This document shows positions 2,939 to 63,133 of a stretch of DNA of 64,000 nt, piece after piece (position 1 is the stretch's first letter; each line of letters starts with the position of its first letter). The position numbers and the translations under genes were made by a program. The DNA is from a phage. The notes beneath the pieces are model-generated. The model was not told the origin of the DNA and did not search any database. It saw nothing but the letters and a program-made list of their open reading frames with translations. The stretch lies in NCBI GenBank assembly GCA_027263115.1, contig GCA_027263115.1_3656.1. One strand, given 5' to 3'.

Positions 2939-3554
2939 TCTGAATCTGATTTTCTGGAAATCGTTCCGGCTCTCGACCTGAAATTTTTGGGGACGAAATC
3001 GATTTTTCGTTTTCAGAAATGGATTTTTAAAATTTCTATATGGGAATATTTTAGTGGATACTATTTTATAGGAAATTGTTACGGAGGGTAATTAGCGTGC
3101 TAATTAAATTTATTAAATGCGAGGAGTTCTCATTTAGAATTTTGAATGATAATCATTCTCGTTTGCAGAATAACGGGCAGGCCCGGTGATTGTCTCCCGG
3201 CCCCTACTGCCCCGGCTTGTTATTATAGTAACACACAGGACAAAGAAAGCAAGAAGTTTTTGCATAAATTTTTAGACGATAATGATAATCGTTCTCATTT
3301 CATGCAGCGCCCATCCCCGGTGGTTGTCTCCCCCGTCACCGGTGCCTGCCGTCCTTTCGATAGGTATATTTTGCCACCTGGCGGGGCCGCTGTCAACACT
3401 TTTCAAAAAAATTTCTAACCTGATGCGCTGACCGCTGCAACCTGGCGGGGCCAGCCTGGCAGGGCCTAACTGACCAGGTAGGAGAGAATGAAGGCTTGCA
3501 AACCTGGTGGGCCTATGCTATAGGATAGGTAACAATTGAAGAGGAGGTACAAAA

Positions 3555-3731
3555 ATGGAAGGTAATATGATCCCCCTGGAAAATGTAGCTATTAATGACG
3601 CTGAGGCTATCGCCCTGGTTGAAAAGGCTATGGCGGGAGCGTTGGAACATAAAGAAGAGTACGAAAAAATGATGGTTAACCTGGCAGGGGCGGCGGCTGG
3701 AGAATTCTACCCAAAAAATAATTTTAACTAA
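3555..3731 (+). CDS. small hypothetical protein (58 aa)
   Basis: ATG after GAGGAGG; below track cutoff; position confirmed relative to downstream ORF 3817. Confidence 0.5.
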   Translation: MEGNMIPLENVAINDAEAIALVEKAMAGALEHKEEYEKMMVNLAGAAAGEFYPKNNFN

Positions 3732-3734
3732 TGG

Positions 3735-3763
3735 TTGACAGCTCGGACAGTTCTTGTTATTCT
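3735..3763 (+). promoter_or_regulatory. sigma70-type promoter TTGACA-N17-TATTCT
   Basis: -35 consensus, moderate -10, upstream of ORF 3817. Confidence 0.45.
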
Positions 3764-3816
3764 TATCCTCGCAAGGTGAACAACACCACACTAATTAACA
3801 GAGAGGATAAAAAATC

Positions 3817-4014
3817 ATGAACGCCTACGGAATTAAAGTACGTCGCAACACTCGCCAGGTGGTCACCAATCAAGTGATTTGCCGGGTGGATGTAACCATC
3901 AACAACGGGCAAGGCCTTTATAAATTTCGTCGCGGTCATAGCTATACCCTGCAACAGCTTAACCGTTGCGCCCTGACAAAAGGTCAGATCAACCACTGGT
4001 TTAATAAAAAATAA
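3817..4014 (+). CDS. hypothetical protein
   Basis: 65 aa, SD AGAGGA upstream. Confidence 0.55.
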   Translation: MNAYGIKVRRNTRQVVTNQVICRVDVTINNGQGLYKFRRGHSYTLQQLNRCALTKGQINHWFNKK

Positions 4015-4026
4015 TGTTGACATATG

Positions 4027-4055
4027 GTCTGACACAAAATACACTGAAATCGCAA
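4027..4055 (+). promoter_or_regulatory. sigma70-type promoter TTGACA-N17-TACACT
   Basis: Hexamers upstream of ORF 4078. Confidence 0.45.
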
Positions 4056-4077
4056 AAGACACTAAGAGGATAAAATC

Positions 4078-4476
4078 ATGAAAACCACTACCTTTAATTT
4101 TGATAATGCGGACTTTTCTTTTTCTGATGTCAAGAACTGCCGCCGTGATCGTGGATTTTACAAGGCTTATAATCTGGTGGGCCTGGACGATGACAATAAT
4201 TTGCACGAAGTAGCTGAGATCCGGTATTATGCCGCCGCCAGTGGTAACACTCACTACTGCGTGTTTTGGATTCACGACAACAAGAACAATAAGTACGGTT
4301 ATACTGGCGGCAAGGCGAGCGGTCACGGTTACGATAAAGCTAACGCAGCACTTGAGAGTGCATTAAATGCTATGGGGATCACTGCCGACGGCTGGATCTA
4401 CGAAGAAGAGTTTTTGTCGGCACTTGCTGACCACCTGGGCTATAAAAAGCACATTGTGACATGCGCCCACGAATAA
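4078..4476 (+). CDS. hypothetical protein
   Basis: 132 aa, SD AAGAGGA upstream. Confidence 0.6.
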   Translation: MKTTTFNFDNADFSFSDVKNCRRDRGFYKAYNLVGLDDDNNLHEVAEIRYYAAASGNTHYCVFWIHDNKNNKYGYTGGKASGHGYDKANAALESALNAMGITADGWIYEEEFLSALADHLGYKKHIVTCAHE

Positions 4477-13806: not shown

Positions 13807-14226
13807 ATGAACATTAAATCTAATAATCCGGCATATAGCTTTGATAACGCTTTTTGTCACGGTCCGGCGGCGAAAGGATTCGAAATCGATGGTAAACTAA
13901 TTATTGTCAATGTTGACGGGGAAGAGGTTGCAGTATATCCGGTGGCAGACGTAAAAAGCCGTTTACAATGCCGCATTGATGTTACCGCCTATCAGCTTGA
14001 TCCGGTCCGCATAGTTGCCCTGGTCCTGGAAGAAGAAATTAAAGCCATGCACCATAGCAACAGGTTTATTGGTGACGCTCAGGATAATATGAAGGTGTGC
14101 CGCCATAAAGTTAATGAAGTGCTTAAAGAGTACGGCTATAAAGATCTTATGATCAAACGTGATGAAAAATTCCGGTACCGTAACGACCTGGCAAATCGAA
14201 TCTATGAAATATACGAATCATTATAA
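13807..14226 (+). CDS. hypothetical protein
   Basis: 139 aa, SD AAGAGGTAAAAA; last gene of rightward early array. Confidence 0.6.
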   Translation: MNIKSNNPAYSFDNAFCHGPAAKGFEIDGKLIIVNVDGEEVAVYPVADVKSRLQCRIDVTAYQLDPVRIVALVLEEEIKAMHHSNRFIGDAQDNMKVCRHKVNEVLKEYGYKDLMIKRDEKFRYRNDLANRIYEIYESL

Positions 14227-14244
14227 TTTTTTAACTGAATTATC

Positions 14245-14270
14245 AAGGGGCTTAGGCCCCTTTCTTTTTG
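14245..14270 (+). terminator. rho-independent terminator closing the early array
   Basis: AAGGGGC-loop-GCCCCTT hairpin followed by TCTTTTTG. Confidence 0.65.
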
Positions 14271-14877
14271 TCTGATCTTCCCCCTACCATAAACGGCCCT
14301 ACCTGGCAAGTGGAATAATTGACGAGCCATCAACCCCACACACTGTACAAATATACATGTAAAATAACTATTGCATAACTTTTCATTGTGTGGTAGCAGG
14401 GCTATTTTTACCCGTTTTTCCTTCCAAAATTGCACGTAATGCAGCTATTGCACAAAATTTAACCTGATGCATATCTTCAGTGTCTTGTCAACAACTAAAA
14501 ATCTTTATAAGTCATGCACTTACATAACCACAAAAGCGTGCTCTACGTGAAAAATCGAGTATAACTATAGCCGCCAGATCTCAGAATTTACGTACGCTCA
14601 CCATTCTATAGTCTGCTAAGTATTTATTCCAACCATAGAATAACGGAATAGTCAATACCTGCATAAAATAATTATTCGTGTAAACTGCATAACATAAATC
14701 AGCTTAGGTGTCAACATTTTTCGTAAACAGTCTGAAATTATCACGATGAGTTATCATAAACAGAGAAATCTTTAGTCGTCTAATGTTTACTGTACGTTAC
14801 TATACTAACTGAAATCATTAGATGACTAATAGAAAGATAAGAAATAATTAACAATACAATTATTTTATCTGTAACAA

Positions 14878-15165
14878 TAAGGCAACTATGCAAACGAATG
14901 GCATGGCGCGACGGAGTCGCGACATAATATAAAAGCAGTAACCATCACCCCCGTGATAGTTTGTCTGCAATCTATTAATCAGATCATAGTTGCCTTGTAT
15001 TTAGTTAATCATGACATAACAAGCAAGGCAACTATAGATCTGCTAATAGTTGCCCTGCTTTTATATTATGTCATAGGAACGCCCGAAGGGGTGACCTAGT
15101 CACCTGGCATAGCCAGCGAAAGATTATTAACTTGGTAATAGTTATCATGCAAACGAATGGCATGG
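14878..15165. repeat. nested palindromic region: 18-bp inverted repeat (about 14921-14938 vs 15055-15072), 19-bp direct repeat ATGCAAACGAATGGCATGG x2, AGGCAACTAT/ATAGTTGCC inverted copies
   Basis: Reverse complements and direct copies read directly in the sequence; no ORF with a ribosome-binding site. Confidence 0.65.
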
Positions 15166-15179
15166 CTTATCATCTCTGT

Positions 15180-15420
15180 GTAAACAGTCAATCATGTAAA
15201 CTATTAGATATGTAAACAGTAAAGGGCGTGAACAGTAAGCGAGGGAATAGTAATAGCGTGAATAGTGACAGCGTAAACAGTGACAGCGTAAACAGTCAGG
15301 CATGTCAATTATGTCATATTGTGTCACCATTATGTCACTATTGTGTCACCAGTATGCCCAGTATGTCAATTGAGTCTAAAGTGTCAAAGGTGTCAGACAA
15401 GTTTTTCTCCTCTTTGTCAA
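15180..15420. repeat. tandem short-repeat arrays (GTAAACAGT family incl. 15-mer TGACAGCGTAAACAG x2; then 22-bp TTATGTCAYTATTGTGTCACCA x2 with further TGTCA units)
   Basis: Direct reading; track ORFs here are low-complexity artefacts of the repeats. Confidence 0.7.
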
Positions 15421-16866
15421 GTGCTGCATGAAAAATTTACAAGCTTGTATGGTAGCATTTTTGCGGCCCGTTTACATTCAGTGATGTATGTATAACCCTT
15501 GTTGTGTGGGAGTTTAGACGTCTAGACGGTTGGAAGTCTGCAGGTCAATATCTAATCTATCGGCTGCTAACTATATCCCACACAAATAGTAAGAAATATA
15601 ATTGTTATATGTGTAAACAGTAACTCATGTTATCAATCCCTGTATGGATCGCCAGTGGTGCGCATAATGGGTATTATGTTAAATTGCCCGTAATGATAAC
15701 AGTTCTCACAATGATAGGTATTCTCATTCATCCACACAAAATAGGTTGCAAATGTTGTGCCACTGTGTGAACGGCCTGGCCTATTAATTTCTCTCACTGC
15801 CTCGATATTTGAGGATTGTTATAAGAATGAGAAGTATTCCCATTCCGTCCGCCTGGCAGCGCTCCTGTAGGTCCTGCAAGGACTCTAGCTGAAAGCTAGA
15901 CCCTTCGGGCCTCCCTGTAGGTCAGGTCAAAATCGTGGCAGAACTGAGCCTGTTCAGATATTTCTGGCTGACTCTTCAGGTCTGTGTGGGAAAAGCCAAC
16001 CTCTCCGGCGGGGCAGGGGAGGGAGGTAAATTAAAAAATTTACGTGGTGTATGAAGCGCTCTTCAGGTAAGGCAGGTATTATGTGATGAAACCCTCTTCA
16101 GGCAATGATATTTGTGGGTGTGATATTTGCTGGAAAGCCAGATATGACGGGACTCCCGGCGGGGCAGGGGTAGTACAGACGGGGGAAATATGGGGATGTA
16201 GTTGGGGAAATTGATCAGGCAGGTAGAGTATGGAATATGTTACAAGTATGTTAAATATGGAGGTTGAATATCTGTAGGATTTGTGTGTAAAATCAAAGAC
16301 TTAAGTGGTGTTGTGGTATTTTCTATAAATAATTCAAGTTTAATAGGTAATATTTGCCTCTATCCACTTTGTGTGGTAAACAGATTCAGATGAGATTAGT
16401 TTACAAGTGTATACATAATATACAAATTAAAGATACAAGAAACCCCCCTCCCCCCTTCGGCTACCATTCACCTTTTCCTCTGACTGGTACTTAAACACTT
16501 ATTCAGACTCTTCAGGTTATCACCCATATATCATATGGCAGTGACTGGTGTCCTCCGGCCCCTCTTTCGTCACCCGTCCGCTTCGCCATGCTAATGCCAT
16601 AGCTAATGGTTCGGTTGTTCACCCTGTTCACTCAGGTGTATCTCTATACCCCTTCAAACCGAAGAGAACAGAAAACCCGAATTACTCGGTAAAAGAAAAG
16701 AGAAGAACTTAATTTTATCAGGATAGGCAAGAATGTCAAGGCATGACTGCTCACTAAACAAGCAAACAGTCATGTGTGGGAGGTAAGTGATTGTGGTGGT
16801 AGGAAATTTAGTTGAAAGATGTGTTATAGGTGCTTCCAGCACTTTAGCCGGGCAGCTAATTGTGTG

Positions 16867-27945: not shown

Positions 27946-28181
27946 AATCTAGGCTCCTTAAATGAATCTATGTAATCAATTAAATCCCAAGCATCGCGAT
28001 GGGCTGTCAGAGGGTATACTTCTCCGAGAGGGATCATAGCAATAAGTCTATCAAAAACCCAGTCTGGACGCAACATTTTATGGTGATATTCCCACTCACC
28101 TTCCACAGATTTTTTCTGAGTGATCAGGATCTCTGTGTAGTGTTTCGCCTGTCTTGAGTAGATTGAAAATGACTTGTACAT
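27942..28181 (-). CDS. hypothetical protein
   Basis: ATG after AGAGGGGG (track ORF 27942..28217 opens with TTG). Confidence 0.5.
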   Translation of the reverse strand: MYKSFSIYSRQAKHYTEILITQKKSVEGEWEYHHKMLRPDWVFDRLIAMIPLGEVYPLTAHRDAWDLIDYIDSFKEPRL

Positions 28182-28217
28182 AAATGACCCCCTCTTGTTG
28201 AAAACAACAATACACAA

Positions 28218-28502
28218 CTACCAGGTTACTGTCAAGTAGGCAACCGTATTATTTTTCTCTGGGGAGATGCCAACAACATCTACCTGCAGACCTCCTGCCC
28301 TTAAATCTCCAACAATGTGCGGGAAGTAATCTGAGAGATGCGAGGGTAGATTTATCGAAAATCCGCACCCCAGAAAGCCTGCTAACGCTTTATTTTGTAT
28401 CTCCCCTACAATCGCATCATAAATGGAGTTAAGCTCGTCAGGGAGCGTTACAGGGCGTTTTAGCGCTAGCTGGTGTAATTTGTCCTTAGCACTCATTTTC
28501 AT
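28218..28502 (-). CDS. hypothetical protein
   Basis: Internal ATG adjacent to stop of upstream methyltransferase gene. Confidence 0.5.
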   Translation of the reverse strand: MKMSAKDKLHQLALKRPVTLPDELNSIYDAIVGEIQNKALAGFLGCGFSINLPSHLSDYFPHIVGDLRAGGLQVDVVGISPEKNNTVAYLTVTW

Positions 28503-29032
28503 TTCAGGTCTACCTCTGGGGGTGCCAACCACATAAACGGCGGCAAGTCTAAACGGTTTTTCTTATCCCACACAAAATATGCATATGCTTGCCCGTCAGT
28601 TCTGCCGTTTGATTGAAATGATGGACGCTTAGATATTGTGATCACAGTAGTAGGTGCATTATCAAGCCACCATTCAAATCTGGCTTTGCTTTCCAGAAAA
28701 TTAAGACGCAAAAGCATAATAACTACGTCAGCATCTTTCAACGCCTTGTCTACAAACTCACGAGCCAGGCTGTATGGTGGGTTGGTGATAATACAGTCAA
28801 CATGGTTGTATTCTGTATTCAGATAGTCAACACCTTCTTGTATTTCTCCCCATGCAGATCCTAACGGCATACGGGAGTAGAACACACCTGAGGCACTATT
28901 CCTGCAAGGCTCTAAGTAGGTCCAGTCTTCTGGGAACGGAATAAGGTCATACAGCCCTTCTGCACACCACTCCGGTGTCACATACTCATCGTAGGCGTTA
29001 CGTTGTTCATCAGGTTTTCTAGCACAAGTCAT
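28499..29032 (-). CDS. DNA N6-adenine methyltransferase (small, Dam-like)
   Basis: 177 aa; catalytic IITNPPYS motif. Confidence 0.7.
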   Translation of the reverse strand: MTCARKPDEQRNAYDEYVTPEWCAEGLYDLIPFPEDWTYLEPCRNSASGVFYSRMPLGSAWGEIQEGVDYLNTEYNHVDCIITNPPYSLAREFVDKALKDADVVIMLLRLNFLESKARFEWWLDNAPTTVITISKRPSFQSNGRTDGQAYAYFVWDKKNRLDLPPFMWLAPPEVDLK

Positions 29033-29045
29033 GCAAATCTCCAGA

Positions 29046-29068
29046 TCATAAAAGCCCTCCGAAGAGGG
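29046..29068 (-). terminator. rho-independent terminator (minus strand)
   Basis: AAAGCCCTC-TTCG-GAGGGCTTT hairpin followed by TTTTAT on minus strand. Confidence 0.55.
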
Positions 29069-29083
29069 CTTTAGAATTAATGT

Positions 29084-30133
29084 TTAAGCTTCTTCGACAA
29101 TTCCTGCACCCAGGATTTTTTCATTGAGCTCTTTTGCTGTTTTAATAATATTGTCCACCAGACGCTTGCGAGTCTTATCTTTCACCTTAACCTCTTCACC
29201 GCCGTTCAGAGTAGTCTTCAATTGAGACAGAATATCCTGAAGTTCAACGACAGAGAATCTCTGCAGATCTTCTGAAGTAATCTCACTCAGGGCAATTCTG
29301 ACGGTCTCGCCACTTTCCATCTGCAGATTCAGGAACACAGTGTGAACATCACCTTTCGAACCACCCGCTTTTGCAGATTCAACAGCATGAACTAACTCAT
29401 CTAAAGATGTGCACTGGTGAATCTCCGGAAGACCTGCTTCACCTAACACGCCTTCTTCATCACCTTTTGCCAGAAGCTTTTTCGGTTTTTGTCCGTTCTG
29501 GATGCGTTGTATGTTGCCTTCATCCAGAATAATAGCTCCAGTGCGTGCTGCCAGCTCTTCTCCGTCCAACCACACTTCGCCACCAGCTGTGATGGATGCG
29601 ATCTCATCTTCTGTCAGCACCCCACCGTAGTATTTTTCGATCAGGCGTTCAAAACGTTTTTTCCAGTAGCTGACCTGAGTATTCATGTTCACACCGTTAC
29701 CATAAGTGCCACCTTGATAGTAGTGGAACATAAACTCTGTGTCCGGAGCCACAGTACGTTCTTTACAACCAAGCCATAAGATTGTTCCAGCAGAGCAGCA
29801 CATCCCTTCAGCATGTGCAACAACGCTTGCCTGAGACTCTCGGAATGCCTGCAGATAAGCCATTGCAATGTGCACGCAACCCCCAGGGCTATTGATGATC
29901 ACCCGAATGCTTTCTTCCGGCTGAGCCATACGGATCGTCTGCAGACGAGACATATGATCTTGTAAGTCTTCCAAATCGTCGATATAAAGAACGTGGTCAA
30001 CAACAGGTGTTGGGTAGCTGTATGTTTCCATGATACCGCCCGGCATACCAAACATTTTATTACTCATAGGTTCGAAACCGTTCTGTTTTTCTTTCATGCC
30101 GTGTACCATGGTGCTGCGAGGTGTTAAATTCAT
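29084..30133 (-). CDS. ClpP/S49-like serine peptidase with C-terminal extension
   Basis: 349 aa; VINSPGGCVHIA, GMCCSAGTIL (Ser), FHYYQGG (His) resemble ClpP-family motifs. Confidence 0.6.
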   Translation of the reverse strand: MNLTPRSTMVHGMKEKQNGFEPMSNKMFGMPGGIMETYSYPTPVVDHVLYIDDLEDLQDHMSRLQTIRMAQPEESIRVIINSPGGCVHIAMAYLQAFRESQASVVAHAEGMCCSAGTILWLGCKERTVAPDTEFMFHYYQGGTYGNGVNMNTQVSYWKKRFERLIEKYYGGVLTEDEIASITAGGEVWLDGEELAARTGAIILDEGNIQRIQNGQKPKKLLAKGDEEGVLGEAGLPEIHQCTSLDELVHAVESAKAGGSKGDVHTVFLNLQMESGETVRIALSEITSEDLQRFSVVELQDILSQLKTTLNGGEEVKVKDKTRKRLVDNIIKTAKELNEKILGAGIVEEA

Positions 30134-30193
30134 GAGAAATCCTTAATATTGGAAGTTGAAAGCTATTTATTTAAACCTGATTCACATTTACCT

Positions 30194-30505
30194 TTATTTA
30201 GCAATCACTATGGAATACTTACGATTGTCAGAAGCATCACAGCTCAATGATTGCCAGTCTACCACATACCACGTATCATTGTCAACAATTACTTTATCGC
30301 CTGTTCTGTAGCAGGTGCTGCTTTCAATAATCCGAGACTCGATAAAGAATCTGTGTCGGCGCTCACGTAGCAACGCTAAGTTGATTATATTACCACCACT
30401 GTCCTTGATCCACACATTCTTGGATCCTTTATTTGCCAAAATTGTCTCGCCGTTATAGACAAACAGGCAGTATATTTTATTCAGTCTCTCTTGTATTGTA
30501 GCCAT
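30194..30505 (-). CDS. hypothetical protein
   Basis: 103 aa. Confidence 0.55.
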   Translation of the reverse strand: MATIQERLNKIYCLFVYNGETILANKGSKNVWIKDSGGNIINLALLRERRHRFFIESRIIESSTCYRTGDKVIVDNDTWYVVDWQSLSCDASDNRKYSIVIAK

Positions 30506-30608
30506 ACTATCTCCTTCTCCTTGTCTTGTCCGATAATAATATCTAAAGCTTACCTGTTTGTCAACAACTGTTTTAGATATTTAAGGGTGGAATAACCACC
30601 CTTCTGTA

Positions 30609-31397
30609 TTACTCGGAAACAGGGGTCCAAATATGATTTGCACGATCCTCAATAAGATTGAGTGCAATCTGACGACCCAACCCGGAACGAACAACATCGT
30701 CTGGACTATCAAAGCTGATCATTCCAACCTCAGGGTCTGGATGACGAGTAAAGAAATCCGTCACCCATGCAAGGCCAGATTTACCAGGGATGTCACGTTG
30801 GCTATTATCGCCCATAATTACAAGGGTGGCCTGATCAGAGATCCTTGTGATAATTGACAACATTTCTTCAGGGTTAGTTTGCTGTGCCTCGTCAATCAGG
30901 ACAAAGCATCGCTCATCGAAACTACGACCACGAATGCTTTCAACCTCACAAATCTCGATACGGCTGTTCTGACCGTCTCCCAGCATTGCGGCAAAAGCAC
31001 CTTTGCCAACACGACGACAAATCGTGTCCATCATGCTTCGAAGATAGGGCCACAGTTTCTGCATTGCATTTCCAGGTTTAAATCCTGAAGTCTTTCCTGT
31101 CTGAACGTAAGGACGTGCAACAATGATCTTATCAATCTCGTTCTTACGCAGAAGATCACCTGCATATGCAGATGCCATGAATGTCTTACCGGATCCAAAC
31201 ACACCGTTTACAATGATAATCTTACGTGACCCTAGATAATCAAGATACTTTTGCTGCTTCTTATTCATTGGTCGGAGAGCTGGAGCGGTGTGCTCTCTTT
31301 CGTCAGCAAATTTCTCAGCAGCCTTGCGCAGGCGATCAGATTTGCGAGCCTCTCTAGCTTCATCACGCATGCGTTTTGTTTCTTTAGCTCGACCCAT
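30609..31397 (-). CDS. phoH: PhoH-like ATPase
   Basis: 262 aa; Walker A GVFGSGKTF and PhoH-like overall pattern. Confidence 0.85.
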   Translation of the reverse strand: MGRAKETKRMRDEAREARKSDRLRKAAEKFADEREHTAPALRPMNKKQQKYLDYLGSRKIIIVNGVFGSGKTFMASAYAGDLLRKNEIDKIIVARPYVQTGKTSGFKPGNAMQKLWPYLRSMMDTICRRVGKGAFAAMLGDGQNSRIEICEVESIRGRSFDERCFVLIDEAQQTNPEEMLSIITRISDQATLVIMGDNSQRDIPGKSGLAWVTDFFTRHPDPEVGMISFDSPDDVVRSGLGRQIALNLIEDRANHIWTPVSE

Positions 31398-31435
31398 GTT
31401 GGGACTCCTTTCAGATTGAGATGTGCCAAGTACTT

Positions 31436-31786
31436 TTACTGCAACAGTTTTTCAATAGCCGCTTCCATGCTGCTTGCAACAGCCTGAACTCGGATATTCA
31501 TCTCTTCTTGGTGGATCAGCTCCTTAAGCTCTTTAATGGTAAATTCTTTAGAGAAACCTTCCACCATAATCTTGTGTAAGGCTTCTTGCGTATCTACTTG
31601 CAAGAACTTTTCCAGTTTGTTGGCAGAGGCTTCTAAATCAGCCCGAATGCGAGGGTCATCTGTGCGATTCAGCATTAGGCGTAAGCCATCAAGATTAGTA
31701 GAAATAGCGTCTGCATGTTGAGTAACTAACCGTGGCAAAATGAGATCTACAAACTTATTAGCCAAATCGATACGTTCTTGTGTCAC
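31436..31786 (-). CDS. hypothetical protein
   Basis: 116 aa, GTG start overlapping stop of upstream micro-ORF. Confidence 0.5.
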   Translation of the reverse strand: MTQERIDLANKFVDLILPRLVTQHADAISTNLDGLRLMLNRTDDPRIRADLEASANKLEKFLQVDTQEALHKIMVEGFSKEFTIKELKELIHQEEMNIRVQAVASSMEAAIEKLLQ

Positions 31787-31896
31787 TGTTGCACCCCCTC
31801 TTCATCCTCATGATGTTTCTTTTCACGCTTGTGTTTTTTCTTGAGCTCAAGCGCAATTTCTTTTTTGTACGCCTTCTTCAAGGCTTTTTTAGCCAT
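31783..31896 (-). CDS. small highly basic protein (37 aa)
   Basis: ATG after GAGGAGGTG; Lys-rich; GTGA coupling with downstream gene. Confidence 0.45.
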   Translation of the reverse strand: MAKKALKKAYKKEIALELKKKHKREKKHHEDEEGVQQ

Positions 31897-31960
31897 TTGG
31901 CACCTCCTCTGCTTTCATTTTACGATAATTATACCTATCTAAACAAAGCTTTGTCAACAG

Positions 31961-32434
31961 CTAGTCTACCTGAACCCAACCGCCTGATACTTTTTTAAAC
32001 ATTCTTTGGTTATCACTGCCTCGGAACGGTTTCTTGGTTGGTAAATCTTTTACATACTTACCGTCAATGATGATATCAGCCAGTTTAAGAACATCACTAG
32101 AGATATGGTCAAATGTGAACCCAGTATATACAAGAATAGTTTTCTTGTCACCAAATTTTTCCTTAATTTTCTCCATCAGGCTAATAATATCTGGCTCATT
32201 ATAGTATGCTAAGGGTTCTCCACCCAGCAGAGAGATACCGCACACAGACGGGTTATCTAAATCTGACAAGATTTTTTGCAAGTCTTCTTCAGTAAACTCT
32301 CTCCCCTTATCTTTTGACCAAAATGCCTGATTAAAGCAACCAGGGCAAGCGTGTGGGCACCCAGATACCCATAAGGCAGTTCTAATACCTGGCCCTTCGG
32401 TGTAAGATATTTCTGTGTATCCGGCAATATTCAT
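31961..32434 (-). CDS. nrdG: anaerobic ribonucleotide reductase activating protein (radical SAM)
   Basis: 157 aa; CPHACPGC radical-SAM cysteine cluster; adjacent to nrdD. Confidence 0.85.
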   Translation of the reverse strand: MNIAGYTEISYTEGPGIRTALWVSGCPHACPGCFNQAFWSKDKGREFTEEDLQKILSDLDNPSVCGISLLGGEPLAYYNEPDIISLMEKIKEKFGDKKTILVYTGFTFDHISSDVLKLADIIIDGKYVKDLPTKKPFRGSDNQRMFKKVSGGWVQVD

Positions 32435-32610: not shown

Positions 32611-34734
32611 TCAGCAACCACAACTTCCGTAGTGCTTAACCCGTTCTATAACTTCCGCTTGCTTACCTTTATTGTAAGGACGGGAGTTTGGACTAGACAG
32701 GTACCCGGATACACGTCTGATCACACTGATCGTTCCCTCTTCATGGTTTCCACACTCTGGGCATACAAAGCCTTTAGCTGTTGCACTAAACTCACCAGAG
32801 AAACCACACTTGAGACATTTATCCACAGGTTGGTTAATACCAAAATACATAATGTGTTTATACCCGAAGTCAACAAGAGCCTCTAAAGCATCCAGGTTGT
32901 TTTTCAGATTTGGTGTCTCTACGTATCCGATGTTGCCACCAGAGGAGATCATAGCAAAACCTTCTTCATACTTCCACTTATCAAAAGGAGAGCTATTGAT
33001 CCATACTGGCTGATGGAAACTGTTGGTGAGATATTCATGCTCGTGCTTCAACACTTCAGGATATTCACGATCCAGACAGGTTGCAGCTTTATAGCATAGG
33101 CTCTCAGAAGGGGTGCCGTACAAGCTAAATGCTAGTCTACTTTCCTTCTTGTATCGCTCACAAGCATCTCTCATGTGCTGAAGGATTCCAAGAGCTAAAG
33201 CCTTGTCACCCTCTCTGCCCAAAATCTGACAGGTTTCATACACACCAATATACCCAATACTGATGGAAGCGTACCCGTCATAGAAGAGTTTATCAATACT
33301 CTCTTCAGGATCCAGGCGAGCAAGAGCGCCTTCACACCACATGATAGGGTTCTGCCCTGCCTTGGTGCCTTTCAGACGGTTAACCCTTACAAGGTGAGCC
33401 TCGTATGCAAGATCCAGATACTCGTCAAGAACGGCAAAGAAATCAACACCTTCCGTCTTAGCTTTTGCCGCAATCATTGGCAGGTTAAGACTAACAACAC
33501 CCAAGTTGAATCTGCCGAGGTATTTCTCCTCGCCTGTTTCCAAGTCATTGTATTTGCTAAGAAAACTCCGGCAACCCATGCTCGTTACTTTACCATCTGT
33601 CGAGCCTGTCACTTTACGATTTAGTGGAACAGAAACAAAGTCAGGATAAATCCGCTCTGCAGAGCATTCCAGAGCTAATCGTTTCAAATCATAGTTAGGA
33701 TCTCCAGGGTTCATGTTGACACCCTCTTCTAGGAAGAACAGCACTTTAGGGAACACAGGTGTGATACGTTCTTCACCAAGACCCATTTTGTGGACTTTCA
33801 AGTAATTTTTGGTAATCATTCTACCAAAGACCGAGGTATCCAGTCCTAAACTTAATGTGATGAATGGAGTTTGCCCGTTGACAGAAGTTAACGTATTGAT
33901 TTGATAGAGCAAAGTCTGCATGCTGTCAAATACGTCTTTATCTGTCATTTGCATTGCAACAGTCTCAGCATCTGGCAACCAATGTTCCTGGCAAAATTTA
34001 AGGTTCTTCTCATAGGTCGCTTCAGCATACTGTGCCAGATAATGATCAATATGGCTCATAGTCTGACCACCATATTGAGCACTAGCTACTGCACTAGAGA
34101 TTTGGCTAAGGATTGTTGTTGCAACCCCTATTGACTTCGGCTTACTGACATGGGCGTTACCAATGTTGAATCCGTTTTCCAACATATCTGGATAATTTAC
34201 CAAACAACAGTTTGTTAACGGACTGATCAAGTAGTCAAGATCATGCACATGGATGAAGCCTCTATTGTGCTCTTCTGAGACACGGTCTGGCAGGATCTGT
34301 GTTGATGCAAGGTGTTTGCTAAGGATGCCTGCAAGCAGGTCACGATGAGTGTGTACATGATTGGTAGGCTTATTTGCGTTTTCTTTTGTAAATTCATCAC
34401 AAGTGCGATCCAAGAAGCCACTAATATCTGCAAGCAGTTTTCCACCTGCCTCTCTATTATTATCTCTTGTCTGCCTATACTGGATGTATTCTCTGGCTGC
34501 ACATTTTAAACCCATATCCATAAGAGCGTCTTCAACAAGGATATGGATATTTTTTACAGAGATCGTGCACTGGTCGGTTGGTAGAGTGTTAGCAACAACT
34601 TCATTAACCGCGCAGGCGATCCGGTAAGCTTCTTCTTCAGTATGTCCAGACTCAAGTAAGGCGGACTCTGCCGCCTTGATCACCTTAATTCCGTTATAGA
34701 CCTCTTCTCTACCGTCCCGTTTTACAACTTTCAC
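32611..34734 (-). CDS. nrdD: anaerobic ribonucleoside-triphosphate reductase (class III)
   Basis: 707 aa; C-terminal glycyl-radical motif RRVSGYL and zinc-ribbon cysteines. Confidence 0.9.
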   Translation of the reverse strand: MKVVKRDGREEVYNGIKVIKAAESALLESGHTEEEAYRIACAVNEVVANTLPTDQCTISVKNIHILVEDALMDMGLKCAAREYIQYRQTRDNNREAGGKLLADISGFLDRTCDEFTKENANKPTNHVHTHRDLLAGILSKHLASTQILPDRVSEEHNRGFIHVHDLDYLISPLTNCCLVNYPDMLENGFNIGNAHVSKPKSIGVATTILSQISSAVASAQYGGQTMSHIDHYLAQYAEATYEKNLKFCQEHWLPDAETVAMQMTDKDVFDSMQTLLYQINTLTSVNGQTPFITLSLGLDTSVFGRMITKNYLKVHKMGLGEERITPVFPKVLFFLEEGVNMNPGDPNYDLKRLALECSAERIYPDFVSVPLNRKVTGSTDGKVTSMGCRSFLSKYNDLETGEEKYLGRFNLGVVSLNLPMIAAKAKTEGVDFFAVLDEYLDLAYEAHLVRVNRLKGTKAGQNPIMWCEGALARLDPEESIDKLFYDGYASISIGYIGVYETCQILGREGDKALALGILQHMRDACERYKKESRLAFSLYGTPSESLCYKAATCLDREYPEVLKHEHEYLTNSFHQPVWINSSPFDKWKYEEGFAMISSGGNIGYVETPNLKNNLDALEALVDFGYKHIMYFGINQPVDKCLKCGFSGEFSATAKGFVCPECGNHEEGTISVIRRVSGYLSSPNSRPYNKGKQAEVIERVKHYGSCGC

Positions 34735-61089: not shown

Positions 61090-62646
61090 GTGTCCAAAAA
61101 GAACCGCAGGAAACACAACGCCACAGCCAAAACTGTGAATAAATCTGGGAACGCAGGCGCACCAACTCATAATGTTCGTATGAGTGAGATCGGTTCTGGC
61201 GCACTTTCCCAAATTATGGCAGAATCGCAATCTATGATGGTTGAGGAATTGCGTTGGCCTCAGCTGATTGCCACAGTGGAGACTATGAAATGTGATTCCA
61301 CAGTTGCTACTGCCTTAGATACAAAATATGTTTTCATCACGAAAGCATTCAATGATTTTAAGATCCTTTATAATGTTAAAAGTGAAGACTCTAAGAAAGC
61401 TGCCGAGCTTATAGAGTATTCTTTGCGTAATTTGGCAAACCAACAAACCCTTCGGGATATTGCAAGAAGCGCAGCTACCTTTAACGAGTATGGTTTTTCA
61501 CTGTTTGAGAAAGTATACCGCAGAGAGAAAGAAGGTAAATATGCCGGGATGCTTCTTATTGATAAAATTGCATTCCGACCTCAGGCCAGTCTGTCCAGAT
61601 CAGAGCCGTTTGTCTTTGACAAGAATAGTAGAACACTGACAGGTATTTATCAGTCACCTAATGCATTTCTAAACACTCAGAATGCACGCTGGGCTGGACC
61701 TCTTGCTGCAATGCCTTCAAAAGGCTTTAATGAGCCTGAAATTTTCATCCCTGCTAAAAAGCTTATGCTCATGACCCTGTCAGGAACAGAATCTAACCCT
61801 GCAGGTGTGTCACCTATGATAGGTTGCTACAGATCTTTCCGTGAGAAAGTTCTGATTGAAAACCTTGAGGTTGTTGGCTGTTCCAAAGACCTTGGTGGTG
61901 TGCTTGAGCTGAAAATTCCTTCCAATATTTTGAACAAGGCCAGCATTGATCCGAATTCAATGGAAGGGAGAATGGTTGCAGACCTTATGCTTGACGCAGC
62001 AAACGCCCATAGTGGTGAGCAAAGTTTCTTTATACTTCCGTCTGATAGAGATAAGTCTGGTAAAGAGCTTTACTCCATGACCCTGAAGGGGGTTGACGGT
62101 ATGGGTAAGCAGTATTCCACTAAAGATTTGATTGATGCCCGTAAGAAGGCGATTCTTGACCGTTTCGGTGCTGGCTTTATTAACCTCGGTAACGATAACG
62201 TTGGATCCTTCTCTCTGTCTGAGTCAAAACAGTCTATCCATGGTCATTTTGTTCAGCGTGATATAGATATTATCACTGAAGCCTTCAATAAAGATCTTAT
62301 TCCACAGCTTCTGGCATTGAATGGTATCATCCTTGAAGATGATGATATGCCTAAACTGAAACCTGGTCTGATTGAAGAAGTGGATATGGAGAGCTTCTCC
62401 AAGTTTGTCCAGAGGATCGGTGCTGTAGGTTACTTGCCAAAAACTCCTGCAGTAATTAATAAGATTCTTGAAGTAGGTGGGTTTGATGAAAGATTTGACG
62501 AGGACATGGATCAGGAAGAGCTGATGAAGCTCTTGGGCCAGGACATTAGTAGAGCTGGTGATGGAATGGCTGCAGGATCCACTGGTAACGGCACTTCTAA
62601 GATGTCATCAACCAGAGATAATTCCATATCCAACATGGAAAATTAA
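61090..62646 (+). CDS. portal protein (putative)
   Basis: 518 aa, GTG start; size and position immediately after terminase; no motif-level confirmation. Confidence 0.55.
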   Translation: MSKKNRRKHNATAKTVNKSGNAGAPTHNVRMSEIGSGALSQIMAESQSMMVEELRWPQLIATVETMKCDSTVATALDTKYVFITKAFNDFKILYNVKSEDSKKAAELIEYSLRNLANQQTLRDIARSAATFNEYGFSLFEKVYRREKEGKYAGMLLIDKIAFRPQASLSRSEPFVFDKNSRTLTGIYQSPNAFLNTQNARWAGPLAAMPSKGFNEPEIFIPAKKLMLMTLSGTESNPAGVSPMIGCYRSFREKVLIENLEVVGCSKDLGGVLELKIPSNILNKASIDPNSMEGRMVADLMLDAANAHSGEQSFFILPSDRDKSGKELYSMTLKGVDGMGKQYSTKDLIDARKKAILDRFGAGFINLGNDNVGSFSLSESKQSIHGHFVQRDIDIITEAFNKDLIPQLLALNGIILEDDDMPKLKPGLIEEVDMESFSKFVQRIGAVGYLPKTPAVINKILEVGGFDERFDEDMDQEELMKLLGQDISRAGDGMAAGSTGNGTSKMSSTRDNSISNMEN

Positions 62647-62713: not shown

Positions 62714-63133
62714 ATGCCACAGGAAGAAATGATTTCCTACGAAATCATCTACGAGCCTGACACTAAAGATGCTCACGGTGAGTGGATGAGTAAAGACACC
62801 ATCAAAAAGGCTAAAGATAACTGGGACGCAGCATACGCCGCAGGACTAGTTTCTGAAAACCTTTTTCACTTGACCTCTACAGATGCTTTCACCATTGAAA
62901 AGACGTGGATTCAAGAAGAGTTTGATGTTGTAGTGATTGGCACTGAGCAGGTCATCAAGGCTGGCTCTTGGGTTGCTAAAGTTAAATACAATAATCCTGA
63001 ATTATGGGAAGCTAAGAAGGCTGGCATTGTTGGTGGCCTAAGCATTCAGGCAACAGGTAATGTTGATGAAGAAACTGGTGAAATTACCAACGTAAACTTC
63101 GGGATCAGTGTTGTAGAAGAGGGCAATGAATAA
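62714..63133 (+). CDS. head morphogenesis-associated protein (unassigned)
   Basis: 139 aa from internal ATG of track ORF 62558; between portal and scaffold-like gene. Confidence 0.4.
   Translation: MPQEEMISYEIIYEPDTKDAHGEWMSKDTIKKAKDNWDAAYAAGLVSENLFHLTSTDAFTIEKTWIQEEFDVVVIGTEQVIKAGSWVAKVKYNNPELWEAKKAGIVGGLSIQATGNVDEETGEITNVNFGISVVEEGNE

Follow-up and report, generated by a model that had tools for sequence, protein, structure and literature searches.

The described proteins closest to the ClpP-like peptidases of rV5-like phages are cellular ClpP (MEROPS S14, PF00574; E. coli ClpP, PDB 1tyf/6wr2), the ClpP-related head-maturation proteases (NF045542; phrog_1684, phrog_94, phrog_133), and the phage "ATP-dependent protease" family phrog_1827. 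The head-maturation proteases belong to the same fold superfamily and act by the same Ser/His chemistry; C-terminal extensions are common among them. Family phrog_1827, found in ICP1, KVP40/nt-1-like, PaP1-like, and T5-like Klebsiella phages, is a sister family with the same catalytic core. Iyer et al. 2021 (PMC7824862) suggested that phage ClpP homologs target the host. Here, we consider one such homolog, rV5 gp122, which was named "ClpP (ATP-dependent) protease subunit" in 2013 (PMC3606486 Table S3), as it is encoded in a stretch of phage DNA of 64,000 nucleotides (nt) (NCBI GenBank assembly GCA_027263115.1, contig GCA_027263115.1_3656.1; one strand, 5′ to 3′), hereafter called the window. 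The window belongs to an rV5-like E. coli phage (Vequintavirus): across the 4 kb around the gene, identity to over 100 phages of this kind, among them Escherichia phage AlexBoehm (MZ501048), is 99%–99.9%.

The overall picture, which we consider probable, is of an active ClpP-fold Ser/His peptidase that is expressed within the non-structural program, plays no part in capsid maturation, and does not dock to ClpX or ClpA in the canonical way. Parts of this picture were already known: the gene and its ClpP annotation, and the published idea that phage ClpP homologs have host targets (PMC7824862); its placement in the genome is normal for the family. What is new is the loss of the docking pocket, an orphan C-terminal module, a putative two-gene transcription unit, and the displacement of a ClpP-fold peptidase by an HslV-fold peptidase in sister lineages.

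Catalytic core, docking pocket, and C-terminal module

The 349-amino-acid (aa) protein is read from a start codon with an AAGGA ribosome-binding site 7 nt before it. It matches Pfam CLP_protease (PF00574) over residues 59–168 with 47.7 bits (cutoff 20.2), phrog_5410 ("ATP-dependent protease") over its full length (residues 24–345, 2e-155), and phrog_1827 at 2.6e-40. In an AlphaFold model for which an alignment of 26 family sequences served as input, residues 45–212 form a ClpP-type core with a predicted local distance difference test (pLDDT) score above 90, and the top 50 Foldseek matches to the model are all ClpP (E ~1e-10; template modeling score 0.65–0.72 relative to the target). The initial annotation had described a ClpP-like open reading frame (ORF) of this length, with a C-terminal extension of ~150 aa, between PhoH and a methyltransferase in the leftward gene block; the ORF, the Pfam match, the AlphaFold model, and the neighboring genes all bear this out.

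How closely does the protein resemble cellular ClpP? It has the same alpha/beta core, handle helix, and Ser/His positions, and it retains the INSPGG and QGG motifs. However, identity is only ~20%–27%, the third residue of the catalytic triad is E or Q rather than D, and the phage protein adds a 40-residue disordered N-terminal tail and an extension of ~140 residues at the C terminus. A 5-residue deletion shortens the helix that carries L48/F49 in cellular ClpP, and most positions of the docking pocket are polar or charged.

No variation at Ser114 or His137 is seen among the 26 family members or in the homologs of ICP1, nt-1, and PaP1; therefore, the protein is probably catalytically active. 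The position of ClpP Asp171 is more variable: it is Glu in the phage under study, Glu in 4 of the 26 family members and Gln in the other 22, and Asp in ICP1 and nt-1.

To map the docking pocket, we aligned the protein to E. coli ClpP by profile, using INSPGG and the motifs of the catalytic Ser and His as anchors. The E. coli residues known to receive the IGF/IGL loops of ClpX and ClpA include Y60, Y62, F82, I90, M92, F112, and L114, which align with R77, I/V79, E99, H107, E109, T127, and A/S129, respectively. R77, E99, H107, E109, and T127 are each invariant in the family, and two further pocket residues, L48/F49, are lost in the 5-residue deletion. Hence, the hydrophobic docking pocket for ClpX/ClpA is lost, with mostly polar or charged residues in its place. 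The cellular ClpP equivalog and subfamily models of NCBIfam also score far below their cutoffs (33–39 bits versus 228–308). No ClpX or ClpA homolog is present in the phage annotation, in which the sole AAA+ protein is of the MoxR type. Because the docking residues are replaced, cellular ClpP models score low, and no ClpX/ClpA is annotated, the database label "ATP-dependent" is unsupported.

These data bear on the possibility that the protein is a genuine ClpP subunit that, either by itself or in a mixture with host ClpP, works with ClpX or ClpA of the host and thereby redirects ATP-dependent proteolysis during infection. The complete ClpP fold, the Ser-His pair, and the above-cutoff PF00574 match would all be expected of such a subunit. 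Mixed ClpP1/ClpP2 rings are known in bacteria, and the solved structures most similar to the protein include Pseudomonas ClpP1/ClpP2 chains. Nevertheless, we judge this possibility unlikely, given that every mapped position of the IGF-loop pocket is replaced, that Asp171 is mostly exchanged for Gln, that the cellular models fit so poorly, and that the only annotated AAA+ protein is not an unfoldase of the ClpX/ClpA type.

The N-terminal tail raises a second possibility, that the protein mainly binds rather than cuts and, as a decoy or cap, would block or re-tune host ClpP. At aa 25–46 (window 29995–30060), the tail carries a conserved N-x-x-F-G-x-P-G ... Y-S-Y-P motif, in which Y40 and P41 never vary and F28 and G29 hardly do. 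Its F-G-(M/F/L) tripeptide, located in a disordered segment, is reminiscent of the hydrophobic-Gly-hydrophobic IGF/IGL tripeptide of Clp unfoldases; nt-1 has I-G-W at the aligned position, and the protein's own docking pocket is lost. However, a motif three residues long carries no statistical weight, and the ICP1 and PaP1 homologs do not have it. The invariance of Ser114 and His137 across very distant homologs points to selection for catalysis, and the HslV-type peptidase that takes the place of this gene in other phages requires a free N-terminal Thr and cannot bear such a tail. We therefore regard a binding-only role as extremely unlikely and favor an active peptidase.

The C-terminal extension, ~140 aa in total, consists of a poorly conserved linker and a conserved module (residues ~263–343) in which F293, E297, and R322 are invariant. 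The module has a pLDDT of ~80–90, rising to ~90 in its core when it is modeled alone. Domain prediction, which the initial annotation had named as a way to examine the extension, gives no Pfam domain, and for the conserved module a fold search of BFVD and the PDB gives no informative match. A profile of the module had six matches among 1.84 billion representative proteins: three are full-length family members, each carrying the module at its C terminus, and the others are fragments or weak matches. The module is an orphan fold that is specific to the rV5-type family. Proteins of the sister family phrog_1827 are mostly 180–245 aa long and do not have it; C-terminal tails in these relatives are different and long in ICP1, short and acidic in nt-1, and missing in PaP1.

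Head maturation and the transcription unit

Is the ClpP-like protein the prohead protease of its phage? The head genes lie on the plus strand at 59.4–64 kb of the window, ~30 kb from the ClpP-like gene and on the opposite strand, and they include their own candidate. Between the portal and scaffold genes there is an XkdF-type (Peptidase_S78_2) putative prohead protease, which has D-x-H and G-x-S motifs in common with PaP1 gp048 and is annotated as a prohead or capsid protease in AlexBoehm and ICP1. XkdF has been proposed as a head-processing peptidase (Iyer et al. 2021, PMC7824862). In the ICP1 capsid study, cleavage of the scaffold took place in E. coli with no phage protease present, and no experiment there assigns the protease. 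In virions of the related phage CB7, the XkdF homolog was detected and no Clp protein is listed. The capsid protein has no delta domain. The initial annotation had pointed to virion proteomics as a check for processed capsid ends, and the published rV5 data provide one: tryptic capsid peptides from rV5 virions begin at residue 5, meaning that the N terminus is kept. The capsid protein is thus not trimmed at its N terminus.

Comparisons with other phages lead in the same direction. In the T4-like phage nt-1, the ClpP-like homolog lies between frd and uvsX, and the gp21 protease gene is in the gp20-gp23 head cluster ~25 kb away. In the T5-like phage Spivey, the homolog is in the early region; T5-like phages are known to encode a separate prohead protease. 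The phi92-like phage JohannJBalmer has the same module of TerL, portal, XkdF, scaffold, decoration, and major capsid protein genes, and capsid proteins of phi92-/phAPEC8-like phages are related to that of the window at E 1e-69. JohannJBalmer is nevertheless a natural knockout, with no ClpP-like sequence in any reading frame (best E 5.6). More broadly, ~940 phage records carry a ClpP-like homolog, mostly outside head modules, and the gene is placed among nucleotide-metabolism, replication, or early genes in the window, AlexBoehm, a Seunavirus-like phage, CR8, ICP1, nt-1, PaP1, and Spivey, as it is for phrog_1827 in general. The suggestion in the initial annotation that a location away from head genes is unusual was therefore wrong.

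The regulatory signals around the gene also differ from those of late genes. A sigma-70-type promoter precedes a 103-aa ORF immediately upstream of the ClpP-like gene, and a GC-rich terminator hairpin follows the stop codon of the protease. Both were predicted independently by the rV5 authors, as P121 and t122 (−14.9 kcal/mol) (PMC3606486 Table S4). The 103-aa ORF and the ClpP-like gene thus appear to form a two-gene unit that runs from a sigma-70 promoter to a terminator. The rV5 authors assign genes 82–163 to one transcription unit, apart from the late morphogenesis unit of genes 27–81, whose promoters bear a TGGTAAAATA-like motif (PMC3606486). Neither the 103-aa ORF nor the ClpP-like gene has a copy of TGGTAAAATA in the intergenic DNA that precedes it. 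The nearest copy found, with one mismatch, is at 30386–30395, inside the 103-aa ORF, and was judged meaningless.

Because the phage has its own XkdF-type peptidase, the capsid is untrimmed, gp21 co-occurs with the homolog in nt-1, and JohannJBalmer does not have the gene, the conclusion that the ClpP-like protein is not an ordinary prohead protease is well supported by comparison among phages. This part of the initial annotation, which had doubted an ordinary maturation role, stands, on the evidence of the XkdF-type gene in the head module, gp21 in nt-1, the gap in phi92-like phages, and the sigma-70 promoter and terminator.

Several points weigh against this reading and the wider picture. First, the best curated model for the protein is NF045542, the ClpP-related head-maturation protease of NCBIfam, which ranks ahead of cellular ClpP, and several head-maturation PHROGs match at E ~1e-22 to 1e-4. 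Second, to our knowledge, XkdF-type proteins have never been shown biochemically to be proteases. Third, mass spectrometry of rV5 virions yielded no peptides of either the ClpP-like or the XkdF-like protein among the 19 proteins detected; this is weak evidence, and the absence is uninformative because just 19 proteins were detected. The same data place gp133, from the leftward non-structural block, among the predominant virion proteins (PMC3606486 Table S5). Fourth, the early or middle expression that we infer for the ClpP-like gene has promoter type and position as its basis; the main text of the PAK_P3/PAK_P4 transcriptome studies gives expression by region only. Fifth, the mapping of the docking pocket depends on a list of E. 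coli ClpP residues that is taken as established. Sixth, we found no experimental work in the literature on a phage ClpP homolog of the rV5 gp122 type. The BASEL paper does not discuss these proteases, and the PhageExpressionAtlas preprint mentions host clpP alone.

Could the protein be a true prohead maturation protease that has been relocated, with its C-terminal extension targeting it to capsid or scaffold and the XkdF-like protein doing something else? The profile matches above would fit, as would the extension itself, since C-terminal targeting domains are typical of prohead proteases. Moreover, rV5-like phages, ICP1, and PaP1, all with the same type of head module, each have both a ClpP-like and an XkdF-like gene. 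Even so, this explanation is very unlikely in our view. The NF045542 score, 60.3 bits, is half of its cutoff of 120. The predicted sigma-70 promoter and terminator of the gene lie within the metabolic block, and no late motif precedes it. Sister phages with the same head do without the gene, nt-1 has gp21 in addition to a homolog in its replication cluster, and the capsid N terminus is intact. Finally, the C-terminal module matches no known scaffold-binding, capsid-binding, or targeting domain, and the PaP1 and nt-1 homologs do not have it.

The XkdF-type gene is itself often mis-annotated, as a "DNA methyltransferase" (phrog_1530; RefSeq entries for FV3, FFH2, ESCO5, and PaP1) or as a "DNA-binding protein." In the mechanical ORF list for the window, its reading frame runs from a GTG at 62558 and overlaps the portal gene, and the annotated start is at 62714; the corresponding PaP1 gp048 is at 3525–3995.

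Exchange of ClpP and HslV folds between PhoH and the methyltransferase

Between PhoH and the methyltransferase, JohannJBalmer and phi92 have an HslV-family peptidase (phrog_1040; phi92 gene 058) in the slot. The flanks of the slot are orthologous: the JohannJBalmer methyltransferase is 47% identical to that of the window (E 9e-46). The HslV-like protein scores above the cutoff for Pfam Proteasome and matches HslV structures at E 5e-8; among 17 homologs, the N-terminal Thr1, a Lys, and a GSG motif never vary. The HslV-like and ClpP-like proteins are not homologous (hhalign probability 1%). The two peptidases are alike in that each occupies the same slot, is the proteolytic core of a two-component chambered protease, is encoded without a cognate ATPase, and has a variable C-terminal tail; however, the HslV-like protein differs in fold and mechanism, being an Ntn-hydrolase with an N-terminal Thr. 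No HslV-like gene was found in the rV5-like genome. Among Escherichia phage records, there are 219 with an XkdF-type gene, 107 with a ClpP-like gene, and 107 with an HslV-like gene; these complementary figures are counts rather than a gene-by-genome table.

Thus, two unrelated self-compartmentalizing peptidase folds replace each other in situ in sister lineages. Because the folds are unrelated, their exchange argues that what is kept at the slot is a generic chambered proteolytic activity. It further argues against a capsid-specific role, and it also argues against reliance on one specific unfoldase, as would be expected of a genuine ClpP subunit. HslV-like proteins are found in 167 phage records, and some members are 280–380 aa long with extra C-terminal domains.

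It is possible that the exchange involves more than the peptidase. In rV5-/phi92-/phAPEC8-like phages, a small upstream protein, a chambered peptidase, and the flanking methyltransferase might together form a "proteolysis cassette" near PhoH, in which ClpP-fold and HslV-fold peptidases are interchangeable without canonical ATPases. The same target or partner might be reached through the small protein and/or a shared acidic tail helix (...T.ED(L/I)..F(S/N)..(E/Q)L..(I/M)L), and the whole might serve as a takeover or counter-defense protease module. We offer this as a tentative proposal, and a somewhat doubtful one. Two leads touch on it, and they are leads only. The small ORFs upstream of either peptidase have a C-terminal (V/I)LVD.(E/D)T...(I/V)D(W/Y) motif (hhalign E 4e-4, probability 34%), and a 29-column segment of the tails of both peptidases scores 22.5, compared with 12.2 ± 2.3 (maximum 18.2) for shuffled columns, with an hhalign probability of 4%. 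The long tails of the 288-aa HslV-like proteins, which by eye look like the ClpP-like C-terminal module, were rejected as its counterpart (hhalign probability 0.09%).

How might the peptidase act? The host RNA polymerase, using the sigma-70 promoter, would make the ClpP-like protein together with the small upstream protein as part of the non-structural program. The ClpP-like protein would then most likely assemble into a ring and degrade peptides or loosely folded proteins, either those of the host or the early ones of the phage, without canonical ClpX/ClpA docking. The family-specific C-terminal module, on its flexible linker, may serve to recognize a partner or substrate. At the conserved "peptidase slot" (PhoH ... 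peptidase ... methyltransferase), selection would be for a generic compartmentalized proteolytic activity. A regulatory or host-directed role, which the initial annotation had suggested and which Iyer et al. 2021 (PMC7824862) had proposed earlier, is plausible, and we put it forward at that strength.

What are the implications of this proposal? First, the peptidase is conserved and evidently under selection in hundreds of large lytic phages, among which are the therapy candidates from the rV5, phi92, PAK_P1, and ICP1 groups. Second, this peptidase is routinely labeled an "ATP-dependent Clp protease subunit" or mistaken for a head protease, and here both names are probably wrong. Third, the swap of ClpP and HslV folds in one slot is a natural experiment that points to a generic compartmentalized protease activity needed before assembly. 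It yields matched pairs of phages, such as the BASEL phages AlexBoehm and JohannJBalmer, for direct functional testing. Fourth, if the targets are host defense or regulatory proteins, the peptidase may represent a widespread takeover mechanism that is not yet studied; if they are not, the annotation is still corrected.

Genome neighborhood and further observations

The window maps onto AlexBoehm from ~76 kb, via the genome end, to 5 kb. The ClpP-like gene lies in a leftward block of 35 kb (18–53 kb) devoted to nucleotide metabolism and replication, with genes for ribonucleotide reductases (RNRs) of classes I and III, thymidylate synthase, ligase, and exonucleases. Linkage of the peptidase to PhoH is kept in Seunavirus-like phages, CR8, ICP1, and phi92. 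In Seunavirus-like and Certrevirus phages, the ClpP-like gene is preceded by homologs of the 103-aa ORF that are 26%–31% identical to it. PADLOC matched neither the protease nor the 103-aa ORF. The features discussed above are listed in Table 1.

Table 1. Positions of the peptidase gene, its parts and signals, and related genes (window coordinates unless an accession or phage is named)
Feature	Coordinates	Strand	Basis or remarks
ClpP-fold serine peptidase, 349 aa (rV5 gp122, phrog_5410)	29084..30133	-	ATG start
N-terminal tail, aa 1-44, predicted disordered	30002..30133	-	pLDDT <50 for residues 1-40
ClpP-fold catalytic core, aa 45-212	29498..30001	-	Ser114 codon 29792-29794; His137 codon 29723-29725
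Variable charged linker, aa 213-262	29348..29497	-	Low pLDDT, poorly conserved
Conserved C-terminal module, orphan fold, aa 263-349	29087..29347	-	Beta-hairpin then helices
Sigma-70-type promoter, TTGACA-17-TATTAT	30536..30564	-	11/12 match; promoter scan and sequence reading; = rV5 P121
103-aa ORF (rV5 gp121, phrog_5456), between PhoH and protease	30194..30505	-	Gene 1 of the putative two-gene unit
Intrinsic terminator, hairpin AAAGCCCUC-UUCG-GAGGGCUUU and U-run	29048..29072	-	Fold -14.9 kcal/mol; = rV5 t122
PhoH-like ATPase, upstream flank of the slot	30609..31397	-	Pfam PhoH 3.6e-47
N6-adenine DNA methyltransferase, downstream flank of the slot	28499..29032	-	phrog_799 8e-67
XkdF-type (Peptidase_S78_2) putative prohead protease, between portal and scaffold	62714..63133	+	PF14550 5e-18, 65.7 bits (cutoff 24)
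HslV-family peptidase	MZ501084.1 11049-11702	-	Variable C-terminal tails
HslV-family peptidase	phi92 3501-4154		Variable C-terminal tails

A few observations concern other parts of the genome. At ~14000–16800 of the window, the GC content falls to 0.39. This stretch corresponds to ~2.5 kb of AlexBoehm without an annotated coding sequence (90.5–93.0 kb), it is the point where rightward genes give way to leftward genes, and the rV5 map probably shows it as the "non-coding" box. The class III anaerobic RNR gene (window 32611–34734, minus strand) is a single unbroken ORF of 707 aa, and the AlexBoehm annotation joins two pieces, which suggests that some relatives have an insertion (intron or intein) that is absent from the phage under study. 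Outside the window, the rightward early region of AlexBoehm (MZ501048.1 1016–2476 and 6124–7308) has genes for a MoxR-type AAA+ ATPase and a putative metallopeptidase of 486 aa, which make up a second pair of protease-related, non-structural proteins in the rV5-like genome.

Finally, ~19 GenBank records of the MG0656xx series labeled "Campylobacter phage" (C15, A12a, C12, etc., host C. jejuni) are 98.5%–99.9% identical to the window over positions 28000–32000. Further "Campylobacter phage" records match phi92-like phages. These records look like mislabeled or contaminant assemblies.

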